A DNA stretch of 64,000 bases, from positions 25,944 through 89,943 of the forward strand of contig JBFWXQ010000016.1 in NCBI GenBank assembly GCA_050187295.1, read 5' to 3'. Every line of letters begins with the position of its first letter. The first letter of the stretch is position 1. A program made the translations under genes and the position numbers. Below are positions 20,439-55,895 of the stretch, piece after piece. This stretch comes from Blastocatellales bacterium (GTDB taxonomy: Bacteria > Acidobacteriota > Blastocatellia > RBC074). The notes under the pieces are model-generated. The model was given only the letters and a program-made list of their open reading frames with translations. It did not search any database and was not told the DNA's origin.

Positions 20439-21767
20439 TTAGCGCGCCGCCAGCAGGCGGCTCTGTGGACGGAACGCAATCTCGCTATCAGGACGATTGG
20501 CCATAGGCATTGCGCCTCCGCATTCGGTCATCAAGCGTTTTAGAAAATCATCTTGCACGCGGCGCAGATGCAGCACGCTGCGGCCTTCGGCCATGTTGTA
20601 AACGGCAAACAGCAAAACTCCGCAGGATCTTGTGTTCATCGCTCCGGCCAGAGCCGCCACGCCGTCGTCAGTGCTGTGCAATGTGCCGGTTTTGGCGACG
20701 ACGCTTCCGGCGAATTGAGGTTCGGAAAATCTTCCAGCCAGCGTGCCGGAATCAAGTCCGGCCACAGGCATGACCGATTCAATCCGCAAACCGTTTGAAT
20801 AAAGCCGATCAATCATCGCGCGCAGAATTCGCACAGTGTCCACAGGGGTCAGCCGGTTCACGTCCAAACCCGAACCGTGCGAAACGTAAACCAGATGGCC
20901 GGGCACGCCGACGCGTTCAATCAGAAAGCGTTGAACGCCCGATGCTCCGCCAACGTGATTGGCCAGCATATCGGCCATTGCGTTGACGCTGTGAGCGTTC
21001 AAATACCGCGCGATGTTCAGCAGCGAATCGGATTCGACGACCAGAATCGTTTGGGCGTGATCGTAATTCGCGTGGCGGTTTTCGTAACGGGTCTGTCCAC
21101 GAAAAACCAATCGCGATTGGCGGCGAAAGACTCCGGCCGAAATATCAGTCTGGGAATTTTCGTTGCAGGTGAAATCGCCGACGACTACCAGACTGCCGTT
21201 GACACGGCGGATTCCCATTCGCCGCAAAGCGTCGCCCGCCTGCCGCGCGTCCTGAATCGAAAACGATGGATCGCCTCCGCTGAACAAAACCAGATCGCCA
21301 TTGAGTTCGCCCGTATGAGGATTGATTTCGCCCGTCACACGAAATTCCGTTCGGAAACGATGACCGGGCCCGAAAGTTTCCAAAGCCGCCAGCGTCGTCG
21401 CCAGCTTGATGACCGAAGCCGGATTGAACATCGCGCTTTCATTGAGCGCGGCGATAGCCTGTCCGCTTGACAATTCTTCGACGTAAATTCCGTGCTGACC
21501 GGGATTGCGACGTTCGATCTGCAATCGTTGCAGGAATTCATCCAAAGCTCGCGGTTCAGGATTTCTGCCGGTTGGATAATTGACCGCGACCGAACCGGCG
21601 GGATTGGCCGGAGCGTTATCGCTGGCTGGTCTTCTGGGTTTGCCGAATTTATCTGTCAGGCCGTAACCGGAATTCGGCGCAAAGGAGTTCGACAGCTTCA
21701 GATCGTGCGTCGGACCGGACGCACAGGCAGTCAACAGCAGCGCGAGGATTAGGGGCGTTCTTTTCAT
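20439..21767 (-). CDS. dacB: D-alanyl-D-alanine carboxypeptidase/endopeptidase, PBP4 (peptidase S13) family lipoprotein
   Basis: SxxK motif NPASVIKL, lipoprotein-type signal LLTAC, about 440 aa. Confidence 0.65.
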   Translation of the reverse strand: MKRTPLILALLLTACASGPTHDLKLSNSFAPNSGYGLTDKFGKPRRPASDNAPANPAGSVAVNYPTGRNPEPRALDEFLQRLQIERRNPGQHGIYVEELSSGQAIAALNESAMFNPASVIKLATTLAALETFGPGHRFRTEFRVTGEINPHTGELNGDLVLFSGGDPSFSIQDARQAGDALRRMGIRRVNGSLVVVGDFTCNENSQTDISAGVFRRQSRLVFRGQTRYENRHANYDHAQTILVVESDSLLNIARYLNAHSVNAMADMLANHVGGASGVQRFLIERVGVPGHLVYVSHGSGLDVNRLTPVDTVRILRAMIDRLYSNGLRIESVMPVAGLDSGTLAGRFSEPQFAGSVVAKTGTLHSTDDGVAALAGAMNTRSCGVLLFAVYNMAEGRSVLHLRRVQDDFLKRLMTECGGAMPMANRPDSEIAFRPQSRLLAAR

Positions 21768-21980
21768 TCTCAGCTTGCCAGTCTTTAGTTTTGGATTTCT
21801 TGTGGTTTGTTTCTCTCGGACGCGGTGGTAAATTAACGGCGCATCGCAATTAAATCAAGCTTTTGATTGTAGTAAGGCGAGCTGCCAGCTTGCCTTAGAA
21901 AATGGCAGTACCGGAATTTCTATGTTTGAAGAGAGGGATTATCCTTTATCGGTCAGGGAAGAAAGTCTTTCCCCTGTCTG

Positions 21981-22017
21981 TTAATGGTTAATGGCTGATG
22001 GTTAATGGCTAATTTCG
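21981..22017 (+). repeat. 37-bp intergenic repeat containing a 7-mer tandem array (GTTAATG GTTAATG GCTGATG GTTAATG GCTAAT)
   Basis: 36-37 nt identical to the reverse complement of 43063-43100; flanking sequence is also similar (tcagggaagaaagtctttcc vs tcaggaggaaagattctttacc). Confidence 0.7.
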
Positions 22018-22107
22018 AGATTGTCGTTCCTCCTTTCATCAAATGTTTACCAATTGAATTACCCGTAGTGCCTAGAAAATGGCAACCAATCCAGAGTAAA
22101 CATCTGC

Positions 22108-22130
22108 GGGGCAAGCTGGCAGCTTGCCCC
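22108..22130. promoter_or_regulatory. 23-nt perfect palindrome GGGGCAAGCTG-G-CAGCTTGCCCC about 30 nt upstream of the M14 peptidase start
   Basis: 11-bp perfect arms; a degenerate copy GGCGAGCTGCCAGCTTGCC lies at 21876-21894; each is adjacent to a direct-repeat box C(C/T)TAGAAAATGGCA (21895-21907 and 22072-22084). Confidence 0.5.
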
Positions 22131-22159
22131 TACAGCTTTCCGCAAGGAGTCGCCCACAA

Positions 22160-24697
22160 ATGCCTTCGCGTTGTCTCAGCTTAATACTCATCATCGTTTT
22201 ATTCGCTTCTCCGATCATCGCGTTCGCTCAATCGGGCAGAACCGGCGCTCAAAGTTCCGTTACAGCTTCGGCGATTCCACCGCCTGAAAGCGTTCTGGGT
22301 TTCAAAATCGGCGAAGACCGCAAGCTGGCCAAATGGGACCAGTTCGTCAGCTATTTCCGCAAACTGTCTGAAACCAGCGACCGCGTCAAACTGGACGTGC
22401 TGGGCAAAACGACGCTCGGAAGACCATTCGTCGCGGCGACGATTTCTTCGGCTGAAAATCTGAACCGGCTGGACGAATTCAAAGAGATTCAGCGCCGTCT
22501 GGCCGATCCGCGATTGCTGGACACTGCCACCGAAGCCGGTATCAAGGATTTGATCCAGGCAGGCCGCACGGTGGTCGTCATCACTTGCAGCATACATTCG
22601 ACCGAAGTCGGCGGCACATTCACGGCAACGGAACTGGCGTATCGTCTGGCTTCTGAAAATTCGCCTGAGGTCAAACAGATTCTGGATAACGTGATTGTCT
22701 TGCTGGTTCCTTCGCTGAATCCTGACGGAACGGACATCGTCGCCGACTGGTATCAGAAAACGCTCGGAACCGCCGCCGAAGGAACTTCGCCGCCGGAGTT
22801 GTATCACCATTACACCGGCCACGACAACAATCGCGACTGGTACGCCTTCACACAGGTTGAAACGCAATTGACCGTCGACAAACTGCTCAACGCGTGGCAT
22901 CCGCAAATTCTGCACGACATTCATCAGATGGGCGGCAACGGCGCGCGAATGTTTGTTCCGCCCTACACAGACCCGTGGGAGCCGAACATTGATCCGGCAT
23001 TGATCGCCGGAGTCAGCGCGCTCGGCACTTCTATGGCTTGGGAATTGACCGCGCAAGGCAAGAGCGGTGTTGTGTTGAACGGGATTTATGATTCGTGGAC
23101 TCCGGCGCGAGCTTACGCGCATTACCACGCCGGTTTGCGCATTTTGTCCGAAACCGCCAGCGCGCGATTGGCCACACCGGTCGAAGTCAATTTCAATCAA
23201 TTGGGCGGCAGATCGGGTTACGATCCGAAAGTGCAATCGTGGAATTTTCCCAAACCCTGGTCGGGAGGCCGTTGGACTATCCGCGACATAATTGATTACC
23301 AAACCGCAGGGGCTTTCGCCCTGCTCAATCACGCGGCGCGTCATCGCGAACTTTACCTGCGGAACTTTTACGAAAGCAGCAAACGCGCCATCGAAGCCAA
23401 AGGTCAGCCTTTCGCTTTCCTGCTGCCGGAACCTGCGCTGCCGAAATCATTGGCCGACGCTTTCAAACGGTTGCAAACCGGATTGAAAAACGTCAGCGGA
23501 ACCGAACAGCAAAAACACGAACAGAGCGAAAGCCTGGTTGACAAAATCAGCAACGAACCATCGTCATCTGATGAGGTCAATTATTACTTCAAAACCGAAG
23601 GCCTGGATCGCCTGCTTTCCGTCCTGCGTCGAGGCGGAGTTGAGGTCGAACGAGCCAGCAATGATTTCACCGCCGACGGAAAAAGCTATCCGGCAGGAAC
23701 GCACATAGTTTTCATGCAACAGCCTTACGGAGCCTTCGCAAAAACCTTGCTCGAAGTTCAACGCTATCCGGATTTGCGCGAATACCCCGGTGGCCCGCCG
23801 CAAAGGCCTTACGACGTGACGGCGCACACCTTGCCGCTGCTGCTGAACGTTCAGGCCGTCGCGGTCAAAAACTCGTTTGAGGTCGAGGCCAAACCGGAGC
23901 CGACAGCGCTGGTCATTCAATCTCGCGTCCGATCCAGCGGCGATACACGCGTGGCAATTTACAAAAACTATCTGGCTTCTATGGATGAAGGATGGACGCG
24001 GTGGATCTTCGATCAATACAAATTCGAGTTCAAATCCTTGTTGCAGGACGAAGCCCGCGCCGGAAACCTGAAAGCCAAATTTGACGCGATCATCATTCCC
24101 GATCAATCAACAGCCGCACTGGTCAACGGTTTGCCCGGCAAAGCACCGGGCGAAGGCAGCGACGACGAAAGCAGAGGGGCTTATCCAGAGCAATACGCCG
24201 GAGGTTTAGGCGAAGCCGGGATCAAGGCTTTGCGCGAATTTGTCGAAGCGGGCGGAACATTGATCACGCTCAACAACGCCTCGAACTTTGCGATTGAGCG
24301 GTTGGGGGTGCCGGTTAAAAATGTCTTGAAAGGCGTTTCTCCGCGTGAATTTTATTGTCCCGGCTCGATCCTGCGGACTGAATTGGATACTGAACTCAAT
24401 CTGAGCTTCGGGCTGGAAAAAGAATCAATCGCCTGGTTTGAAAACAGCCCGGCGTTTGAAGTTACCGATCACCAAAGCGTCAAGGTCATCGCGCGTTATC
24501 CGCAAACGGAAAACCCGCTGCTGAGCGGATGGATTCTGGGTGATAAATTGCTGCGAGGCAAAGCCGCCATGGTCGAAGCGACCATCGGCAAAGGCCGCGT
24601 CATATTGTTCGGCTTCCGCCCGCAATACCGCGCCCAAAGCCTGGCGACATTGCCGCTGTTGTTCAATTCAATGATGACCAGCAAGTCTGAGCAGTGA
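22160..24697 (+). CDS. Secreted M14-family zinc carboxypeptidase-like protein with a large C-terminal extension (possibly GATase1/ThuA-like fold)
   Basis: SD AGGAG upstream of ATG 22160; signal peptide; IHSTEVGG (HxxE zinc motif); C-terminal AIIIPDQS...GGTLITL segment. Confidence 0.5.
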   Translation: MPSRCLSLILIIVLFASPIIAFAQSGRTGAQSSVTASAIPPPESVLGFKIGEDRKLAKWDQFVSYFRKLSETSDRVKLDVLGKTTLGRPFVAATISSAENLNRLDEFKEIQRRLADPRLLDTATEAGIKDLIQAGRTVVVITCSIHSTEVGGTFTATELAYRLASENSPEVKQILDNVIVLLVPSLNPDGTDIVADWYQKTLGTAAEGTSPPELYHHYTGHDNNRDWYAFTQVETQLTVDKLLNAWHPQILHDIHQMGGNGARMFVPPYTDPWEPNIDPALIAGVSALGTSMAWELTAQGKSGVVLNGIYDSWTPARAYAHYHAGLRILSETASARLATPVEVNFNQLGGRSGYDPKVQSWNFPKPWSGGRWTIRDIIDYQTAGAFALLNHAARHRELYLRNFYESSKRAIEAKGQPFAFLLPEPALPKSLADAFKRLQTGLKNVSGTEQQKHEQSESLVDKISNEPSSSDEVNYYFKTEGLDRLLSVLRRGGVEVERASNDFTADGKSYPAGTHIVFMQQPYGAFAKTLLEVQRYPDLREYPGGPPQRPYDVTAHTLPLLLNVQAVAVKNSFEVEAKPEPTALVIQSRVRSSGDTRVAIYKNYLASMDEGWTRWIFDQYKFEFKSLLQDEARAGNLKAKFDAIIIPDQSTAALVNGLPGKAPGEGSDDESRGAYPEQYAGGLGEAGIKALREFVEAGGTLITLNNASNFAIERLGVPVKNVLKGVSPREFYCPGSILRTELDTELNLSFGLEKESIAWFENSPAFEVTDHQSVKVIARYPQTENPLLSGWILGDKLLRGKAAMVEATIGKGRVILFGFRPQYRAQSLATLPLLFNSMMTSKSEQ

Positions 24698-35422: not shown

Positions 35423-35460
35423 TTTCTCAGGTCTCAGGATCGAGGTTTCAGGTTTCAGGA
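35423..35460. repeat. Tandem heptamer array TYTCAGG x5 (CCTGARA on the gene strand), 30 nt after the acyl-CoA dehydrogenase stop
   Basis: tttctcag gtctcag gatcgag gtttcag gtttcag ga; a 16-bp imperfect inverted repeat (35324-35339 / 35387-35402) lies just beyond. Confidence 0.6.
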
Positions 35461-36766: not shown

Positions 36767-37309
36767 ATGCTAATATCCATAACAACCAAAGCATTGAGGT
36801 CAATTGACCGCTTATTTTTGCTGCCACATGGAAAAAAGATGAAATCACCTTCGCAGGAAAAAAACGGTAAGAAAAGCGCAAGCGCTCTGCGCCATCAGCG
36901 TACGTTGATGCCGGATTCCGAACTGCCGCCGGAAGCACAGGAGTTGCGACTGAAATTCCGGGAATGGCATGACAGCTTTCAAACTCGCGCCAAGCGAATG
37001 GCCTTCATTCGCAAACTCTGCCGAAGAATTGCCGAAGCTTATCAGCCGGAAAAGATCATTCTCTTCGGATCGCACGCTTACGGAGAACCAACTCCCGAAT
37101 CGGACGTGGATTTGATGATCGTCATGGATTACGAAGGCAGACCTATTGATCAGATACTGAAAATTCAACGCGATCTGGATTTAGTTACGCCAGTGGATTT
37201 GTTGATTCGCAGACCGAAAGAAGTGAAAGAGCGATTGCAAGACGGCGATATGTTTATCACCGACGTTTTGCAGCGAGGTAAGGTGATGTATGAAAGCGAG
37301 TACGATTGA
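36767..37309 (+). CDS. Minimal nucleotidyltransferase (MNT) antitoxin-like protein; true start probably internal (about 36838 or 36907)
   Basis: KIILFGSHAYGEPTPESDVDLMIV is a Pol-beta-type NTase motif (GS...DxD). Confidence 0.6.
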   Translation: MLISITTKALRSIDRLFLLPHGKKMKSPSQEKNGKKSASALRHQRTLMPDSELPPEAQELRLKFREWHDSFQTRAKRMAFIRKLCRRIAEAYQPEKIILFGSHAYGEPTPESDVDLMIVMDYEGRPIDQILKIQRDLDLVTPVDLLIRRPKEVKERLQDGDMFITDVLQRGKVMYESEYD

Positions 37310-37676
37310 ATGGATAGAAAAAGCCGAAGGCGATTTTGACATGGCATTGCGAGCATACCGCGCCCGCAAACGCCCGAATTACGATGCCGCCTGTTTCCAC
37401 GCCCAACAATGCATTGAAAAATACCTGAAAGCCCGATTGAACGAAGCCGGGATTGTTATCCAGAAAACTCACAATCTGGTTGACCTGTTGAATGACGTTT
37501 TACCCGCCGAGCCAACCTGGGCAACATTGCACATTACGCTCGCAACCTTGACAAAGTACGCTGTCCTTTACCGATACCCAGGCTACGATGCGACCAAGCT
37601 TGAAGCCAAAACTGCCATCAAAGATTGCCGCAATGTTCGTCGAATCATACGCACGGTTTTTGGATTGCCAGTTTGA
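37290..37676 (+). CDS. HEPN-domain protein (toxin partner of the MNT)
   Basis: 128 aa; HAQQCIEKYLKA...KTHNLVDL HEPN-like Rx4-6H region; 20-nt overlap with the MNT gene. Confidence 0.6.
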   Translation: MKASTIEWIEKAEGDFDMALRAYRARKRPNYDAACFHAQQCIEKYLKARLNEAGIVIQKTHNLVDLLNDVLPAEPTWATLHITLATLTKYAVLYRYPGYDATKLEAKTAIKDCRNVRRIIRTVFGLPV

Positions 37677-41668: not shown

Positions 41669-42802
41669 ATGAAAGTCTGCCCGAAGTGTGCTCGCAGCTT
41701 TGCTGAAGGGTTTCAATATTGCCCGCAGGATGCCAACGAGTTGGTCAAATACGATCTGCGCGTTCACCTGAACCGCCAGAGCGAATTTCAATTTTTACTT
41801 CCGTCGGAAACCTTGCTGGTTCGATTGCGGCGGGAACTGTCCTCAGCCTTAATTGAATTCAAACACAACCCGCGAATTTTTCTGGCTGGGTTGCTGCGTG
41901 GCGAAAAGAGCAGCCGCAGGCGCAAACGATTGCTGCAGGCGGGCGTGGCATCGGCTGTGATCGTTTACGGCGCAGTGATGACGGCTGGATTGCTGATCGG
42001 GCTTTTCACTTCTTCGCTGCATTCGATCGAAGCGGGAAAGCCAATTGAAAGGAATATCAGCGACGAACCGATATTCACTATTCCGCTGGTGGCAGCCAAA
42101 ACTGAGAAGACAAACAAGGCCAAAACGAATCAGGGATTGCTCGGCGGCAGTCTGCCAAAGAGGGGGCGTGCTCAAGGTGGCGGCGGTGGCAACGATGAGA
42201 CTCCAGCCAGCAAAGGCGTCAATCCAACGCCATCGTTGTCGCAGCAATTGATGAAACCTGATTTGAGTCCGCCGGAAATTCTCAACCCAAGCTTGGTTGT
42301 CACCCCGACCATTTACGCCGACCCGAAATCATTTTTGAAAGCAACAGGGCCGATCGGCCTTCGCAATGGCCAGACTGAAACACCTTCGCTCGGCAATGGC
42401 CCCGGAACCGGAATCGGCCCCGGCAATGGTCCGGGTTATGGTCCCGGCGAAAACGGAGGCGTTGGCGGCGGCAAGTTCAAACCCGGTGGCGGAGAAACTA
42501 CCGGCACGGGCAATGAAATATTTGCCCAAACTCGCGACCTTCGCCCAACGATCATTTACAAAGAGCGCGCAAAATATACCGAGGAAGCCCGGCAAAACAG
42601 GATTCAGGGAACAGTTGTCCTCAGCCTGATCTTCGGCGCTGATGGTCGCATTCACGACATTCGTCCGGTTCACAATCTGCCTTACGGTTTGACCGAAGCG
42701 GCAATCGAAGCGGCGCAGAAAATCCGCTTCAATCCGGCGCTGCGAGAAGGGCGTCCGGTCAACGTGCGTTCGCAAATCGAATTCAACTTCACGCTTTACT
42801 GA
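41669..42802 (+). CDS. Zinc-ribbon / TM / Gly-Pro-rich / TonB C-terminal domain protein
   Basis: N-terminal CPKC...CPQD zinc ribbon; TM helice VASAVIVYGAVMTAGLLIGLF; GPG-rich linker; C-terminal TonB-C-like RIQGTVVLSLIFGADGRI...REGRPVNV. Confidence 0.55.
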   Translation: MKVCPKCARSFAEGFQYCPQDANELVKYDLRVHLNRQSEFQFLLPSETLLVRLRRELSSALIEFKHNPRIFLAGLLRGEKSSRRRKRLLQAGVASAVIVYGAVMTAGLLIGLFTSSLHSIEAGKPIERNISDEPIFTIPLVAAKTEKTNKAKTNQGLLGGSLPKRGRAQGGGGGNDETPASKGVNPTPSLSQQLMKPDLSPPEILNPSLVVTPTIYADPKSFLKATGPIGLRNGQTETPSLGNGPGTGIGPGNGPGYGPGENGGVGGGKFKPGGGETTGTGNEIFAQTRDLRPTIIYKERAKYTEEARQNRIQGTVVLSLIFGADGRIHDIRPVHNLPYGLTEAAIEAAQKIRFNPALREGRPVNVRSQIEFNFTLY

Positions 42803-43062
42803 GTCGAAAGAAAGCGGCCATTTGAAATTTGATTTTCCTCCACAAACTCCAGTCCCAAAACTTGAAGCCGCCGAGGTCGCCGCAGGCGCCGCGGGCGGAG
42901 AGGAGTTGGACAATGACGGAACGAGGCCGTGCAGGCAACGTTCTTCGGCGTTCTCTGCTTGCGGTGTCTGCGGCGACTTCGGCGGCATTTTTCGGACTAC
43001 GGAGAGAATATCTCAGGAATTTCAACAAGTAATTAAAGCCGTGAGCAAGCAATCACTCAAAT

Positions 43063-43100
43063 CCGAAATTAGCCATTAACCATCAGCCATTAACCATTAT
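43063..43100 (-). repeat. Inverted copy of the 37-bp heptamer-array repeat (matches 21981-22017)
   Basis: Reverse complement ataatggttaatggctgatggttaatggctaatttcgg; together with a degenerate direct copy at 43138-43167 it forms an imperfect 28-bp hairpin between the convergent TonB-C gene and uvrA. Confidence 0.7.
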
Positions 43101-43137
43101 TCGTCAGGAGGAAAGATTCTTTACCTGCCTGATAATT

Positions 43138-43167
43138 GTTAATGGATAATGACTGATGGTTAATTTC
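43138..43167 (+). repeat. Degenerate third copy of the heptamer-array repeat
   Basis: gttaatggataatgactgatggttaatttc, 2-3 mismatches to the consensus. Confidence 0.55.
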
Positions 43168-43193
43168 TTTCTCAATCAGTGAAACCTGAAAAG

Positions 43194-46073
43194 CTACACG
43201 ACCGTTTTCAAAAATCTTCCCGTGTGCGAATTTTTGATTGTGGCGATTTCTTCGGGAGTTCCGACCGCGACGATCTGCCCCCCGCCGACGCCGCCTTCGG
43301 GCCCCAGGTCAATTATCCAGTCGGCGGTTTTGACGACATCCAGATTGTGTTCGATGACCACCAGCGAAGCTCCCGTTTCCAGCAATCGGCGGAACGACGA
43401 AAGCAGTTTATTGATGTCGTCGAAATGCAATCCCGTCGTCGGTTCGTCGAAAATATAAAGCGAGCGGTCACCGGAAGCTTTGGTCAGATACGAAGCCAGT
43501 TTGACGCGCTGGGCTTCGCCGCCCGAAAGCGTCGTCGCCGATTGTCCCAATCGCAAATAACCCAAACCTACATCATCCAGAACTTTCAGCTTGTTGGCGA
43601 TGCGCGGAACCTGGGAAAAGAAAGCGATGGCTTCGCGAACGGTCAACTGCAAAACTTCGTGGATGTTTTTGCCGCGATACTTAACTTCCAGAATCGAATT
43701 TTTGAACCGTCTGCCGTTGCATTCTTCGCAAACCAGCGCGACATCGGCCAGAAACTGCATTTCGATTGTCACCGTGCCGTCGCCTTCGCAAACGTCGCAA
43801 CGTCCGCCCGGCACGTTGAATGAAAAATGGCTTGGGTTGTAATTGTGCGCCTGAGCTTCGCGTGTCGAGGCGAAAGTTTCGCGGATGGCGTCATAGGCTT
43901 TGATGTATGTGACCGGATTCGATCGCGGGGTGCGGCCAATCGGAGATTGATCAACCAGTATGATGTCGTCAACAAATTTGCCGCCTTCCAGACCGGCAAA
44001 ATCGCCGACTTCGCCCGACCAATCACCTCGCTGTTTCTTCAATCCGGCAAACAGACAGTCGTGTACCAGAGTTGATTTGCCCGACCCGCTGACTCCGGTG
44101 ATGCATACCAACTGGCCGAGCGGAATCTGCACGTCAATGTTTTTCAGGTTATTGGCGCGCGCTCCGCGAATGAGGATTTGATGTTTGCCCGGCTGGCGAT
44201 GTTCTTTCGGAACTTTTATCTGAGCTTCGCCGCGCAGGTATTTTCCGGTCAGCGACGATTCGTGTTTCAGCAATCCATCAAATGAGCCTTCGAAAATCAC
44301 CTCGCCGCCCAATTCTCCAGCGCCGGGGCCAATGTCCAGAATGTGATCGGCGGAGCGCATCATTTCGGCTTCGTGTTCGACAACCAGCACCGTGTTGCCG
44401 ATGTCGCGCAGGTTTTCCAACAAGGCGATCAAACGCGCGCTGTCGCGCGGATGCAAGCCTATGCTGGGTTCGTCCAGCACGTACAAGGCTCCGACCAGCG
44501 ATGAACCCAGATGCGTGGCCAGTTGTATTCGCTGAGCTTCGCCGCCGGACAGTGTCGAAGCCAGCCGGTCAAGGCTCAAATAATCCAATCCGACTTCATC
44601 CATAAACCTCAACCGCGAGCGAACCTCTTTCAGCAACCGGTCGGCAATCGCCGCCTGCTCTTCGGTCAGTTTCAGTTCGTCGAAAAACAACCGGGCGTCT
44701 TTGATCGAAAGCCTGACGACTTCAGGCAGATTTTTTCCGCCGACGAAAACATCGCGGGCTTCGGCGCGCAACCGTCCTCCTTTGCAATCAGGGCAGCGCG
44801 CATAGCCGCGATATTTCGACAGCATGACGCGGACATGCAGTTTGTATTTTTTGGTTTCCAGCCAATCGAACAAACCGCGCACGCCGTCAAACCCTTCGCC
44901 GCCTTCGATCACGGCTTGTTGATGTTCAGTCGGCAAAGCGGCGAACGGTTCGGTCATCGAAATGCCTTCGCGTTTGGCGAATTTTTTCAACTCATCGCGC
45001 CACCATTCAAATTGCGGTTTGGTGAACGGTTCAATCGCGCCTTCGGCCAGCGACAATTCGCGGTTGGGAATGACCAGGTTCATGTCCAGACCGATTGTGT
45101 TGCCGAATCCCTGGCAGGTCGGACACGCGCCGAAAGGATTGTTGAAGCTGAAAAGCTGCGGTTCAGGCCACAGGTAATTGATGCCGCAATTCTTGCACTG
45201 AAACTTTTCCGAAAAAGACAACTGGCACGAATTTTCGCCAACGGTTTGAATCACAGCCTGGCCGTGGCCTTCGCGATAACAGATTTCCAGCGAATCAACC
45301 AACCGGGTGACCACATCCGGTTTGACCGCCAGACGATCAACCAGCACGAAAAAGTTATCGAAGCTTTCAGACGTGAAACTGTCCGGAGTTTGCAGTTCGA
45401 TGGTTTCATCCTTCGCCGCGTCGTAAAGCCGCGTGAAACCGCGCTGCATCAAACTCATCAAATGCGCTTTGACGTTGATTTTCGGTTTGGCCGATTTGCG
45501 AGACCGCGATTTTGGTTTGGTATCCTTGCGCTCTCTGCCGGACGGAGCGGCTGCGGTTGCGACCATGGCCTCTTCTGATTCCACAAGCTCTGTCCCCGCA
45601 GCAGCCGGAAACAAAACATAAAATCGCGTGCCTTCGGCCAATCGCAAAACTTCGTCGCCGATTGATTGCGGAGTGTCGCGTTTGACTTGGTTGTGGCATT
45701 GGCGGCAGACGGTCACGCCCACGCGGGCGAAAAGCAATCGCAGGTAATCGTAAATTTCCGTTTGCGTGGCGACGGTCGAGCGCGGATTGCGGGTGGAATT
45801 TTTCTGATTGATGGCGATGGCCGGACAGATGCCGTGAACTTCGTCAACGTCCGGCTTGTCCATTCGCTCCAGAAACTGCCGCGCGTAAGCCGAAAGCGAT
45901 TCAACGTAACGGCGCTGGCCTTCGGCGTAAATGGTGTCAAAAGCCAGCGAAGATTTGCCGCTGCCGCTGACTCCGGTGACGACCGTCAGTTTGTTCAGGG
46001 GAATAGAAAAAGAAATGTTTTTCAGGTTGTTGACGCGCGCGCCGCGCACCGTGATGTTTTCGTGATTCGACAT
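43194..46073 (-). CDS. uvrA: Excinuclease ABC subunit A
   Basis: Two ABC ATPase modules ([28 protein letters not shown]; [13 protein letters not shown]), zinc-finger Cys clusters, LSGGE signatures. True start ATG 46073 with AGGAG 7 nt upstream. Confidence 0.9.
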
Positions 46074-46260
46074 CCAAACTCCTGCTTTACGCTGCCACTG
46101 CTTCACAGTCAGCGCAGGTCAGAAAAAGTGCATAAACAAGAATCGCGAATTTTATCTGACAAACCGAAAGGCTGACAAACGCGCTTGAAAAGCGACCTCA
46201 TTCGGACAAAGACCGGTTTGGCGATGGTCACAATACAAGACTTTTTGTAGTAGACTTGGA

Positions 46261-53137: not shown

Positions 53138-53761
53138 ATGAAAGCAATCGAAAACTGCAGTGACGAAATACTTTTGAAACGCGCCATGGTCGGGGATGAA
53201 GAGGCTTTCACCCGGCTCTACCGCAATCTTTGCGGCGTTGTTTATCGTTTCGCGCGTCAGATGAGCGGATCGCCTGCATTGGCGGAAGACGTTACACAGG
53301 AAGTTTTTCTGATTCTTTTGCGTAAAGCGCAGCTCTTTGACCCTGACCGTGGATCGCTTTCCACATATTTGCTGCAGATCACGCGAAACGAAATCTTGCG
53401 CCGTCTGGGGCGTGACCGCAACCATGTCGCTTTAGTCGAAAATGATCAGGAAATGGACGTTCCGCCGGACGAAAACCTGATCGTTAAGGGAACGCCGCTC
53501 GGCGCATTGATGCGAAACGAAGAGATTGAACTGGTTCGTCAGGCGGTTTTGGGGCTGCCGATTCATTACCGCGAAGTCGTTGTCCTGTGCGAACTGGAAG
53601 AACTGAGTTACAACGAAGCCGCCGCAATGCTTGATTGCGCGGTTGGCACGGTTCGCTCGCGACTGCATCGCGCGCGCGCTTTGTTGAAACAACGGCTGCA
53701 AATCAGTCAACCGGTAGAATCGGACTCGTTGCGGATAAACCGTGCGGCATTTTTGAGATGA
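53138..53761 (+). CDS. ECF RNA polymerase sigma factor (second copy)
   Basis: Region 2 EDVTQEVFLIL and region 4 ELSYNEAAAMLDCAVGTVRSRL. Confidence 0.75.
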   Translation: MKAIENCSDEILLKRAMVGDEEAFTRLYRNLCGVVYRFARQMSGSPALAEDVTQEVFLILLRKAQLFDPDRGSLSTYLLQITRNEILRRLGRDRNHVALVENDQEMDVPPDENLIVKGTPLGALMRNEEIELVRQAVLGLPIHYREVVVLCELEELSYNEAAAMLDCAVGTVRSRLHRARALLKQRLQISQPVESDSLRINRAAFLR

Positions 53762-53764
53762 GTT

Positions 53765-54535
53765 ATGAACTGTCAGGAATTTGAAACCACCATTGTTGAA
53801 ATTGCGCGAAACCGTCTGATGGACGCTGCAACGCGCGAACAGGGATTGAAACACGCTGAAGTCTGTCAGTCCTGCTTGGCGCTGTTGGAGGAAGAACGTG
53901 TTTTAAGTAACGGTTTGAAAGCGCTTTCCATCGAAACTGGTGCGGAAGAGATTCCCGCTGGAATCGAAAATGCTGTGATGGCGGCATTTCGCCAACGCCA
54001 GGTTATTTCAACCGGTGAATCGGTCAAGTCCTCGGCGTTTATCAATCGCAGGTGGTTGCTGGCGGCGGCAGCGGTTTTATTGATCTCAGGCATTTCATTG
54101 GCGGCCTGGCTGCTGTCCAAACCGCAGCAGGATACCATCGCCATTAATCCAACGCCGAGTCCTATGACCTCGCCGACGCCTGTTTCCATTGAAACAAACC
54201 TCGCTCCGCCACAAGCGAATGAGGAAACTGTTTCGTTGACAATCCGTGATCCGAAACCATCGCCTCGCAGCAAACGATTGCTGAAAGAAAGCGATTACCC
54301 ACAACCGGAACCTTACGGTGACCGGCGCGAAATCGTCACACAGTTTTACCCTATCAATCAGACCAGTGAATTAATTCCATTGGAAGGTGGTCAAATCCTG
54401 CGCGTCAAAATGCCGCGCACGAATCTGGTTCCATTGGGAATCCCCGTCAATCAGGAACGCGTGGATGAAACCGTCCTCGCCGATGTGCTGGTCAGCAACG
54501 ACGGATTGGCTCGCGCCATACGACTGGTTTATTGA
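53765..54535 (+). CDS. Anti-sigma factor (zf-HC2-like) with a single TM helix
   Basis: HAEVCQSCLALLEEE; TM WLLAAAAVLLISGISLAAWLL; immediately follows the sigma gene. Confidence 0.55.
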   Translation: MNCQEFETTIVEIARNRLMDAATREQGLKHAEVCQSCLALLEEERVLSNGLKALSIETGAEEIPAGIENAVMAAFRQRQVISTGESVKSSAFINRRWLLAAAAVLLISGISLAAWLLSKPQQDTIAINPTPSPMTSPTPVSIETNLAPPQANEETVSLTIRDPKPSPRSKRLLKESDYPQPEPYGDRREIVTQFYPINQTSELIPLEGGQILRVKMPRTNLVPLGIPVNQERVDETVLADVLVSNDGLARAIRLVY

Positions 54536-54625
54536 TCCCTATCCGGCGACCGATTGAAACCGGACCAACAAGTTTGCAACTGATCTTCAACAAAACAACT
54601 TCTGAAAGTTAGGAGAGGAATACTT

Positions 54626-55822
54626 ATGAATAGGAAACGACAATTTTTCCTTGCCACACTGTGCAGCTTTGCCTTGCTCGGCAACAATGTTGCCGTCTTT
54701 GCTCAAAGCAAGGAGAAGAAGCAGGAAGCCACCACGCAAAAACACATTTTTATCAATCGCGACGGACAGGTGACGGAAGTCCAGAGCGGCGGCGTATGGA
54801 TTGATGAAACCAGCGGCGGCAATCGTGTGCATTTCGCCACTGCCGATTCCAGCGCGGGTTTTGTGACCAGCACCGGAGGTTCGCCGCAGGTTCAGATAGT
54901 CCAGAACGAATTCCATTTCGACAGCAATGTCGTCAAAGGCGCGCCCTATTCGGCGGATGCCTTGACGGAATTCGTTCAGGTTCTCGGCGATGGCAATCGG
55001 ATTACCCGCACGTCTTCAGCCAAAATATACCGCGACGGCGCCGGACGCACCCGACGAGAACAGGCATTGAAATCTGTCGGCTCCTGGACAGTTACTGGCG
55101 ATAATCAGGTCAGCATTTCGATCAGCGACCCGGTGGCAGGTACACAATACACTTTGAATCCGGCTGCTCGAACGGCAAGCAAAGTCACCGTTCACCGTGT
55201 AACCTCGAAAAGCGGCGGTGATAAAGTCGCCACCTACACCTTCTCCGGCAATTCCTCCAACATCACCGTCAAAGGTGAAAGCAGCGGTGATCAGGTCAAA
55301 TTCGTGACTGACGACAATCGCACATTCATTCTGTCAGGAGACGGCACAGAAAAGGCAATCGCCGAAGTAAAAGCCAAACAGGCTGCAACCGGCGGCGTAG
55401 TTTCAGGAGTCGCGACGACTGCGGGCAATGTCATGGCTTTTTCCAGCGACGCTGAGGTAAACAGGGAATCTCTGGGCACGCAGATGATTGAAGGCGTGAT
55501 GGCCGAGGGCACCCGCGTTACTTTCACAATTCCGGCGGGCAAAATTGGCAACGCAGCGCCTATCGTGACGGTAAACGAACGTTGGTATTCGCCCGAATTG
55601 CAGGCTGTCGTCATGAGCAAAAACAGCGACCCGCGCTCAGGCGAAACCACATATCGATTGATCAACATCAATCGCAGCGAACCTGATCCGTCGCTTTTCC
55701 AGGTTCCATCCGATTACACGATCAAAGAAAACAGCTTCAACTTCACCGGCAAGCCGGAAGATTTGATCAGGATGAAAAAGATTGAAGGTGAATTGAAAGC
55801 CAAAAAACCAAACGACAATTAA
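54626..55822 (+). CDS. Secreted hypothetical protein (beta-rich, T/S/G-rich) downstream of the ECF module
   Basis: Signal peptide MNRKRQFFLATLCSFALLGNNVAVFA; no recognised family. Confidence 0.4.
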   Translation: MNRKRQFFLATLCSFALLGNNVAVFAQSKEKKQEATTQKHIFINRDGQVTEVQSGGVWIDETSGGNRVHFATADSSAGFVTSTGGSPQVQIVQNEFHFDSNVVKGAPYSADALTEFVQVLGDGNRITRTSSAKIYRDGAGRTRREQALKSVGSWTVTGDNQVSISISDPVAGTQYTLNPAARTASKVTVHRVTSKSGGDKVATYTFSGNSSNITVKGESSGDQVKFVTDDNRTFILSGDGTEKAIAEVKAKQAATGGVVSGVATTAGNVMAFSSDAEVNRESLGTQMIEGVMAEGTRVTFTIPAGKIGNAAPIVTVNERWYSPELQAVVMSKNSDPRSGETTYRLININRSEPDPSLFQVPSDYTIKENSFNFTGKPEDLIRMKKIEGELKAKKPNDN

Positions 55823-55845
55823 CTCGACTTACACACGCCTAAAAA

Positions 55846-55895
55846 AGTAAAGAGGAGGGCAGCATTAATGCTGCCCTCCTCTTTACTTTTGGTTT
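55846..55895. terminator. Strong bidirectional hairpin terminator (21-bp perfect stem) between convergent genes
   Basis: AGTAAAGAGGAGGGCAGCATT / AATGCTGCCCTCCTCTTTACT flanked by AAAAAA and TTTTGGTTT. Confidence 0.8.

Follow-up and report, generated by a model that had tools for sequence, protein, structure and literature searches.

The 37-bp repeat that occurs twice, in opposite orientations, in the window (the whole stretch of 64,000 nucleotides that was analysed) is the core of a larger palindromic, non-coding element of about 164-193 bp, which is present at both sites. The most convincing explanation, held with high confidence, is that the 37-mer is part of a non-coding MITE moved in trans by a DDE transposase, and that the two sites are two insertions of it, one in the divergent S13/M14 peptidase intergenic region (region 1) and the other between the convergent TonB_C and uvrA genes (region 2). 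The element is a new MITE family of an already known kind of element.

The repeated element and its architecture

The 37-mer (TTAATGGTTAATGGCTGATGGTTAATGGCTAATTTCG) lies on the + strand and its reverse complement on the - strand with one mismatch, so that the duplication described by the sequence-only reading is confirmed (36/37 identical), although the inverted copy starts at 43064 and not at 43063. No match to the 37-mer was found in 100 dinucleotide-preserving shuffles, chance thus being expected to provide none. At both sites, Tandem Repeats Finder detects period-7 arrays, of 4.9 and 4.6 units, and also a period of 14 at 100%. The similar flanks reported in that reading had been, if anything, understated, as the inverted similarity extends over 80 nt at 79% (21938-22017 against 43064-43143) and the whole-element profile covers both sites. 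The pairing of a degenerate direct copy at 43138-43167 with the inverted copy was likewise reproduced (25-nt arms, 92%), RNA structure prediction folding 43065-43167 into a hairpin of 103 nt (-47.1 kcal/mol, z = -5.8), and the gene setting, divergent at region 1 and convergent at region 2, was also correct. The size of the unit has to be revised, as the segment that is repeated measures 164-193 bp across nine copies rather than 37 bp. No Rfam family was matched at the gathering score and the permissive matches (E<=10) were far below threshold; a known RNA family or ribozyme, despite the hammerhead-like CUGAUG and GAAA motifs, was rejected, as nothing credible was found in Rfam at either setting.

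A degenerate 21-mer from the array, scanned against one genome per species, gave nine loci, of which seven fall on different contigs of a single MAG, CAYRQB01. An element profile, built from the MAG copies sharing the array, the stem-loop, the opposite array and the outer sequence, finds exactly two copies in the window, at 21905-22071 (+) and 43192-43012 (-), and an eighth copy in CAYRQB01 that is devoid of the exact 21-mer (L006:5646-5807). At least eight copies are therefore present on seven contigs of this MAG, plus a remnant at the site orthologous to region 2. The outcome that the sequence-only reading would have taken as a sign of chance duplication, namely no other copies and no conservation in relatives, is clearly not what was found. 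The TonB protein of CAYRQB01 is 88.8% identical to that of the window and the TonB-uvrA synteny is conserved; it is therefore a close relative of the window genome. This assembly (GCA_964426025.1; L001-L009, L211) bears the title 'uncultured Heliomicrobium sp.', which names a genus of Firmicutes; this label looks wrong because of the TonB identity, the gene order and the MITE family that it has in common with a Blastocatellales genome.

Each copy is laid out as a terminal inverted repeat, a spacer, (CCATTAA)n, a central stem-loop, (TTAATGG)n, a second spacer and a terminal inverted repeat, the outer sequence in the MAG copies taking about 40-55 nt per side and ending in the inverted termini. 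The consensus of the left half is GGCRCTACCGGAATTTCTATGG..GGAATTA-(GCCATTA)3-6-TCGGTCAGGG..CCCTGTCTG, and the right half continues after CCCTGTCTG with TTAATGGTTAATGGCTGATGGTTAATGGCTAATT..TTCATCA..ATTGAATTnCCGGTAGYGCC. The terminal inverted repeat (GGCRCTACCGGAATTTC / GAATTnCCGGTAGYGCC in consensus) is imperfect and badly kept in subfamily 2, and the CAGGG/CCCTG stem of the central stem-loop is found in 9/9 copies. Two subfamilies can be recognised: subfamily 1 comprises region 1 of the window and six MAG copies (65-87% pairwise), and subfamily 2 comprises region 2 and L006b (69% identical), copy L001 being an outlier. In the region-1 element, the left heptamer array is mostly deleted. The contigs carrying the window genes in five independent short-read assemblies break exactly inside the arrays, as expected for a multi-copy repeat. 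The coordinates of the parts and of the neighbouring genes are collected in Table 1.

Table 1. Positions in the window of the two element copies, of their parts and of the flanking genes
Feature	Position	Strand	Remarks
S13 peptidase gene (dacB-like)	20439-21767	-	divergent from M14
Left target-site duplication, region 1, TAGAAAAT	21896-21903	.	matching 8-mer on both sides; single TACAAAAT in L046
Region-1 element, 169 bp, subfamily 1	21904-22072	+	profile positions 2-189; bounds from empty site
Left terminal inverted repeat, GGCAGTACCGGAATTTC	21904-21920	+	15/20 to reverse complement of right end
Central stem-loop, GGTCAGGG...CCCTGTCTG	21951-21980	+	CAGGG/CCCTG stem
Right-arm heptamer array (the 37-mer)	21981-22017	+	family's most conserved segment
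Right terminal inverted repeat, GAATTACCCGTAGTGCC	22056-22072	+	empty-site comparison and copy alignment
Right target-site duplication, TAGAAAAT	22073-22080	.	empty-site comparison
M14 peptidase gene	22124-24697	+	divergent from S13
TonB_C gene	41669-42802	+	convergent with uvrA
Region-2 element, about 191 bp, subfamily 2, ends approximate	43008-43198	-	profile positions 7-185 (43192-43012)
Conserved right-type heptamer array, region 2	43064-43100	-	inverted 37-mer; 36/37 to L212 ortholog
Central stem-loop, region 2	43101-43137	-	92% conserved against L212
Degenerate left-type heptamer array, region 2	43138-43167	-	hairpin partner of 43064-43100
uvrA	43194-46106	-	convergent with TonB_C

Insertion at region 1 and evidence for mobility

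The region-1 insertion is recent and polymorphic between lineages. The closest non-identical relative (L046, S13 peptidase 90% identical) has the same intergenic region with the element absent, reading ...GCTTGCCT-TACAAAAT-GAAAACC..., compared to ...GCTTGCCT-TAGAAAAT-[169 bp]-TAGAAAAT-GGCAACC... in the filled site of the window; the perfect 8-bp duplication and the uninterrupted site in the sister lineage thus identify region 1 as a recent transposition. Regarding all nine copies, the 8-mers abutting the two ends agree at 8/8 positions in three (TAGAAAAT, GATTTGAA and GGTTTGGA) and at 7/8 in one, and when left and right flanks from different copies were paired as a control, 8/8 was reached in 1/72. 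The targets of insertion are A/T-rich. At region 2, there is no recognisable target duplication, nor a clean empty site, as L048 is without the element but the alignment fails beyond it, its 109-nt tail being unalignable with the window.

Compared with the criteria for prokaryotic MITEs (PMC11602168), the size lies within the range of 50-800 bp and the duplication of 8 bp within that of 2-10 bp, while the terminal repeats, for which at least 10-15 bp is asked, are present in imperfect form (15/20 in region 1). The copies are dispersed, with two in the 64-kb window and at least eight in the related MAG, and the element is non-autonomous, no ORF being found inside it. From the suggestion of a REP/MITE-like family, the MITE half is then upheld by the terminal inverted repeats, the 8-bp duplications, the empty site and the copies in a related genome. 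In mechanistic terms, a DDE transposase acting in trans would cut its targets, rich in A/T, with a stagger of 8 bp. Carriage of the element by viruses found no match in the viral contigs.

The same divergent promoter region holds two copies of a 19-bp palindrome (GGCGAGCTGCCAGCTTGCC / GGCAAGCTGGCAGCTTGCC), at 21876-21894 and 22110-22128, which are also present in the empty-site relative and are candidate operator sites; the MITE insertion pushed them 177 bp further apart.

The older copy at the 3' end of uvrA

The region-2 copy is an older insertion, common to a lineage that is 24% diverged at neutral sites. The same element is found in the same place in L212-L214 (TonB 88% identical), and between the window and this lineage, TonB and uvrA are 24% diverged at four-fold degenerate sites. 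The divergence is 20% in the outer parts of the element, which is indistinguishable from neutral, compared to 7% in the palindromic core (P = 4e-6) and 3% in the 37-mer (36/37 against the L212 ortholog, P = 5e-4). From the seven core substitutions in all, a small sample, five are at unpaired positions, which make up 26% of the core, and the two in the stem keep the pairing on the uvrA-sense strand (U.G->C-G and A-U->G.U) and break it on the other strand, each in one lineage.

The element directly follows the uvrA stop, and its orientation puts the hairpin in the uvrA transcript, with predicted folds of -62.0 and -59.7 kcal/mol in the two lineages. The evidence that this copy was kept after its insertion is good. 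Neutral drift in the outer arms together with a conserved hairpin core fits a later use as a 3' hairpin of uvrA, which is the simplest reading, and the odds seem evenly balanced that the host has retained this copy as such, either as a terminator or as a stabiliser of the mRNA. In E. coli, individual REP copies can act as mRNA 3' stabilisers or terminators. A scan for canonical terminators gave nothing at region 2, where a G+C-rich stem followed by a U run is not seen, the tail after the 3' arm having 30-53% U and not a clean U run; the two terminator-like sites at region 1 correspond to the small central stem and are not above shuffles.

The last bases of the element overlap the uvrA stop codon (43194-43196), and as this codon sits at the element junction, it is possible that the stop was provided or displaced by the insertion region (window 43194-43200). 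The C-terminus of UvrA in the window, L211 and L212 (..VV*/..VL*) is two codons shorter than in L048 (..VLQL*; L048:6861-6889).

In the MAG contig L211, the outer arms are present at the region-2 site and the whole core is swapped for another palindromic element of 184 nt. This second element (L211:6400-6583, with the ends GTAACTGCTCAGCC...GGCCTGAGTAGTTAC) is dispersed, its termini also occurring at L003:578 and L048:6972, and in CAYRQB01 it replaces precisely the heptamer-array core of region 2, with no visible target duplication.

Other features were observed around this junction and elsewhere in the window. A separate, very stable hairpin of about 120 nt, in which about 36 pairs follow one another without interruption (-95.5 kcal/mol, z = -10.7), is followed by AUUUUU and occupies 42867-42986, between the TonB_C gene and the element; it is 92% conserved in three lineages and probably represents the terminator of the TonB gene or a further palindromic element. 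The possibility of a small ORF in the space separating the TonB gene from the element was rejected, since the substitutions are without codon-position pattern and the stretch is the giant hairpin. In a relative with 85% UvrA identity, uvrA and the TonB gene are separated by an ECF sigma factor gene and the two genes after it (L049:7084-9336); a similar trio is found in the window about 10 kb away, at 53138-55822, so that the uvrA-TonB junction has been rearranged in this lineage. A perfect 48-bp palindrome between convergent genes (55843-55890, 24-nt arms without spacer, AAAAGTAAAGAGGAGGGCAGCATT/AATGCTGCCCTCCTCTTTACTTTT) is likely a bidirectional terminator. Upstream of an acyl-CoA dehydrogenase gene, an imperfect intergenic period-7 array (35425-35459, TCTCAGG/TTTCAGG, about 5 units) is unrelated in sequence to the TTAATGG array. 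At 36767-37676, adjacent nucleotidyltransferase (Polbeta/NTP_transf_2) and HEPN genes have the usual layout of MNT-HEPN toxin-antitoxin systems, the orthologous place in L211 being occupied by a XisH/XisI pair.

Probable relation to ISL3-family transposases

The 8-bp duplication and the CCGGAATTTCT block near the tip resemble the ends of ISL3-family elements, as the literature confirms. ISPst2/CLJ-ISL3 has the inverted repeats GGGTATCCGGAATTTCTGGTTGAT (IRL) and GGGTATACGGATTTAATGGTTGAT (IRR) and 8-bp target duplications such as TTTTTAAA and CAAAAAAG (PMC7643977, PMC6305408). Two traits expected of an ISL3 derivative are found: the duplication has the length given for ISL3 (PMC6305408, PMC11448079), and the termini match, as the left terminal inverted repeat of region 1 shares CCGGAATTTCT with the ISPst2 IRL at equal offset. 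When the MITE ends were aligned to the ISPst2 IRL, anchored at the end, the best score was 12, compared to 5 at the 99.9th percentile of the null, and the similarity to end B of ISPpu12 is weak. In addition, the inner half of the ISPst2/CLJ-ISL3 inverted repeats, TAATGGTTGAT, consists of the heptamer of the arrays, and in the ISPpu12 copy used for comparison (plasmid pWW0, L216:34397-37768, 3,372 bp), all four TGGTTGAT octamers (0.24 expected) are at most 100 bp from an end, where each end has two of them directed inward.

Consequently to these likenesses, the cognate enzyme probably belongs to the ISL3 family, and would most likely be of the ISPst2/ISPpu12 type. The association with a transposase, which the sequence-only reading had proposed to look for, was not found, with none among the 47 window ORFs and no tblastn match to a cognate enzyme in the 423 kb examined; solo termini bracketing an ORF were also absent in 394 kb. 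Because of this, the ISL3 assignment is drawn from the similarity of the ends and the length of the duplication. The termini are imperfect and less conserved than the array, which would be unusual if they were the main recognition site.

Conservation of the heptamer array

It is unusual, though not unprecedented, that the internal reiterated motifs, and not the termini, are the most conserved part of the element. Within subfamily 1, the right-arm array has a mean pairwise identity of 97%, compared to 72% for the left terminus, 57% for the right terminus, 61% for the left array, 69% for the central stem-loop and 46-62% for the spacers. As 7/9 aligned copies were recovered through the exact array 21-mer, which inflates the apparent conservation of the array, and L006b is the sole unbiased copy, the correction consisted of scoring the unforced positions and of the orthologous comparison at region 2; array positions outside the constraint of the search pattern are still 93-94% identical. 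Between the two window copies, 33/34 positions agree inside the array and 42% outside it (P about 1e-11). Constraint acts on one side only, with the left array varying in sequence and in unit number (3-6). A long hairpin can form in 8/9 copies, and no compensatory covariation is seen among them, with a compensatory change in 1/34 pairs; a selected RNA fold across the copies was thus rejected.

A reiterated binding-site array, as the sequence-only reading had put forward, is plausible for the heptamer part only, with the array seen as a reiterated motif for transposase recognition. In the Emigrant MITE, binding of the Lemi1 transposase to internal reiterated motifs, on top of its binding to the termini, was shown experimentally (PMC1636448). 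Tentatively, the heptamer arrays could be the amplified inner recognition half (TTAATGGTTGAT) of an ISL3-type terminal repeat, a putative motif; they would have arisen by tandem amplification of this half, which would explain why the array outdoes the termini in conservation among copies. More doubtful still, the array rather than the termini might be the key cis-acting module, loading several transposase or host-factor molecules, with the hairpin kept by hosts, since a stable and strand-specific hairpin would be readily kept as a 3' structure of an mRNA, as at uvrA.

The main alternative to the recognition-motif reading is that array conservation has no function and results from ectopic gene conversion among copies, or from very recent descent from a single master copy. 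No other exact stretch common to many copies is as long, which makes the array the best substrate for conversion, and concerted evolution would agree with a hairpin without covariation and is favoured by the ascertainment bias of the 21-mer search. However, recent descent cannot explain 33/34 between subfamilies that are 42% identical elsewhere, nor 36/37 between orthologous copies at 24% neutral divergence, and a conversion tract limited to about 35 bp, with diverged sequence on either side, would be unusually short, making this explanation improbable.

Alternative readings of the repeat

Immobile arrays at two loci, to which a DNA- or RNA-binding protein of the host attaches, would account for an array that has diverged far less than neutral sites at the orthologous region-2 locus and is better conserved than the element termini, and heptamer arrays have been proposed as binding sites for proteins such as cold-shock proteins (PMC4679880). 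Nevertheless, the array invariably comes as part of one larger unit that has inverted termini and target duplications, the sister lineage lacks it in the orthologous promoter region, the genes flanking the different insertion sites are unrelated, and L211 keeps its genes with the whole core swapped for another element. Fixed regulatory sites are therefore very unlikely.

The REP half of the REP/MITE-like proposal, in which inverted doublets are spread by a single-copy RAYT through a single-strand, IS200/IS605-like mechanism, is less probable again, to the point of being hard to sustain. Movement of the IS200/IS605 type leaves no target-site duplication. REP and REPIN elements move without such duplications, which are present here at 8 bp along with one clean empty site, so that a REP-like reading is unsupported. 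The long hairpin, the two inverted conserved blocks with a spacer and the extragenic location do resemble the REPIN layout (PMC3116915), as does the GTAG tetranucleotide in the right terminus. However, both REPs are conserved in REPINs, whereas only one block is strongly conserved here (right array 97% against 61% for the left), the compensatory changes common in REPINs (PMC3116915) are absent, and no Y1 transposase is found among the window ORFs.

Two independent matching heptamer microsatellites, arisen by chance duplication or slippage, are practically ruled out although heptamer arrays are common, (GGTTAAT)3 is about as frequent as composition-matched scrambles in viral contigs and the array 21-mer also occurs in unrelated phyla, as zero matches are expected in the window, the homology spans about 170-190 bp, past the arrays and with shared termini, and the composite unit is found at at least eight further loci in the related genome.

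Comparison with known elements and heptamer arrays

A close counterpart is the ISL3-type MITE of Microcystis aeruginosa PCC 7806 (187 nt, 8-nt repeats; PMC11448079), which is likewise non-coding and multicopy, with a stem-loop, ISL3-like inverted termini and 8-nt direct repeats. Its termini are GGCTCTTCG, whereas those described here are of the ISPst2/ISPpu12 type (..CCGGAATTTCT..), and it differs from the present family in the acidobacterial host of the latter and in the interior of inverted tandem heptamer arrays that forms its most conserved part. With ISPst2/CLJ-ISL3/ISPpu12 (PMC7643977, PMC6305408), the element shares the GG tip, CCGGAATTTCT at the same offset, the 8-bp A/T-rich duplications and a TAATGGTTGAT / TGGTTGAT motif reiterated near the ends. 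However, those are autonomous elements of 3-3.4 kb that encode a transposase and passenger genes and carry a spaced pair of motif copies at each end, compared to no genes and 3-6 contiguous motif units per arm in the MITE.

Emigrant/Lemi1 from Arabidopsis (PMC1636448), with internal motifs related to its terminal repeats, serves as a working model for the arrays, but it is a eukaryotic pogo/Tc1-like system with a TA target, and binding was established by experiment there and is deduced here. REPINs/BIMEs (PMC3116915) are alike in being extragenic and hairpin-forming with inverted conserved blocks, and differ in being moved by RAYTs without target duplications and in having both blocks conserved with compensatory changes. 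The TAACTGA arrays of Beggiatoaceae, Cyanobacteria and Bacteroidetes (PMC4679880) also consist of intergenic 7-nt units, with stops in all frames and in distant phyla; they are direct arrays that stand alone, in many cases a short distance before a start codon. The arrays described here differ by forming an inverted pair inside a transposable unit and by their unit sequence. Cyanobacterial STRR are likewise intergenic tandem 7-nt arrays.

Arrays with the 21-mer were found in Nitrospirae, Armatimonadetes and about 15 independent metagenome loci, at a GC of 0.30-0.64, often as hairpins of array, loop and inverted array, a cross-phylum spread resembling that of the TAACTGA arrays of MacGregor (PMC4679880). 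In viral contigs, (GGTTAAT)3 occurs at 14 loci, its same-composition scrambles at 30 and 10, and (TAACTGA)3 at 107, and only 2/29 GGTTAAT-type arrays are near ISL3-like tips. By these scramble controls and the scarcity of such tips, a cross-phylum heptamer system was rejected and the arrays were treated as generic microsatellites; that some GGTTAAT-type hairpin arrays of other phyla are relics of elements like the present MITE is speculative, and the 2/29 does not support it. The literature search gave no match to the TTAATGG array sequence. Among the arrays observed elsewhere, a tRNA gene is followed immediately on its 3' side by a hairpin of GGATAAT/GGCTGAT/GGTTAAT and their complements in orthologous metagenome loci (L028, L029, L039 and L043) of an unrelated organism with a GC of about 0.57, and similar hairpins of array, loop and inverted array are also found in MAGs of Armatimonadetes (L005) and Nitrospirae (L002). 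In low-GC metagenome contigs (0.40-0.43), runs of over 25 GGTTAAT units in tandem stand at the contig ends (L024:1-190 and L037:2780-2863), followed in L024 by four GAGGGCG heptamers.

Significance

The general understanding of MITEs is unchanged by these results. They provide a well-delimited MITE family for the Blastocatellia, a soil lineage that is abundant but nearly uncultured and for which few descriptions of mobile DNA exist and, in practical terms, an element that causes breaks at foreseeable positions in short-read assemblies of these genomes. The two insertions form a dated pair, one recent and polymorphic between lineages and the other old and conserved, and both are in regulatory DNA, one separating the two 19-bp palindromes of a divergent promoter and the other at the 3' end of uvrA. 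A testable idea is also suggested, that ISL3-family transposases recognise a reiterated GGTTGAT-type motif. The region-2 copy is a clean case, occurring in nature, of neutral decay in the outer arms of a selfish element alongside conservation of its hairpin core.
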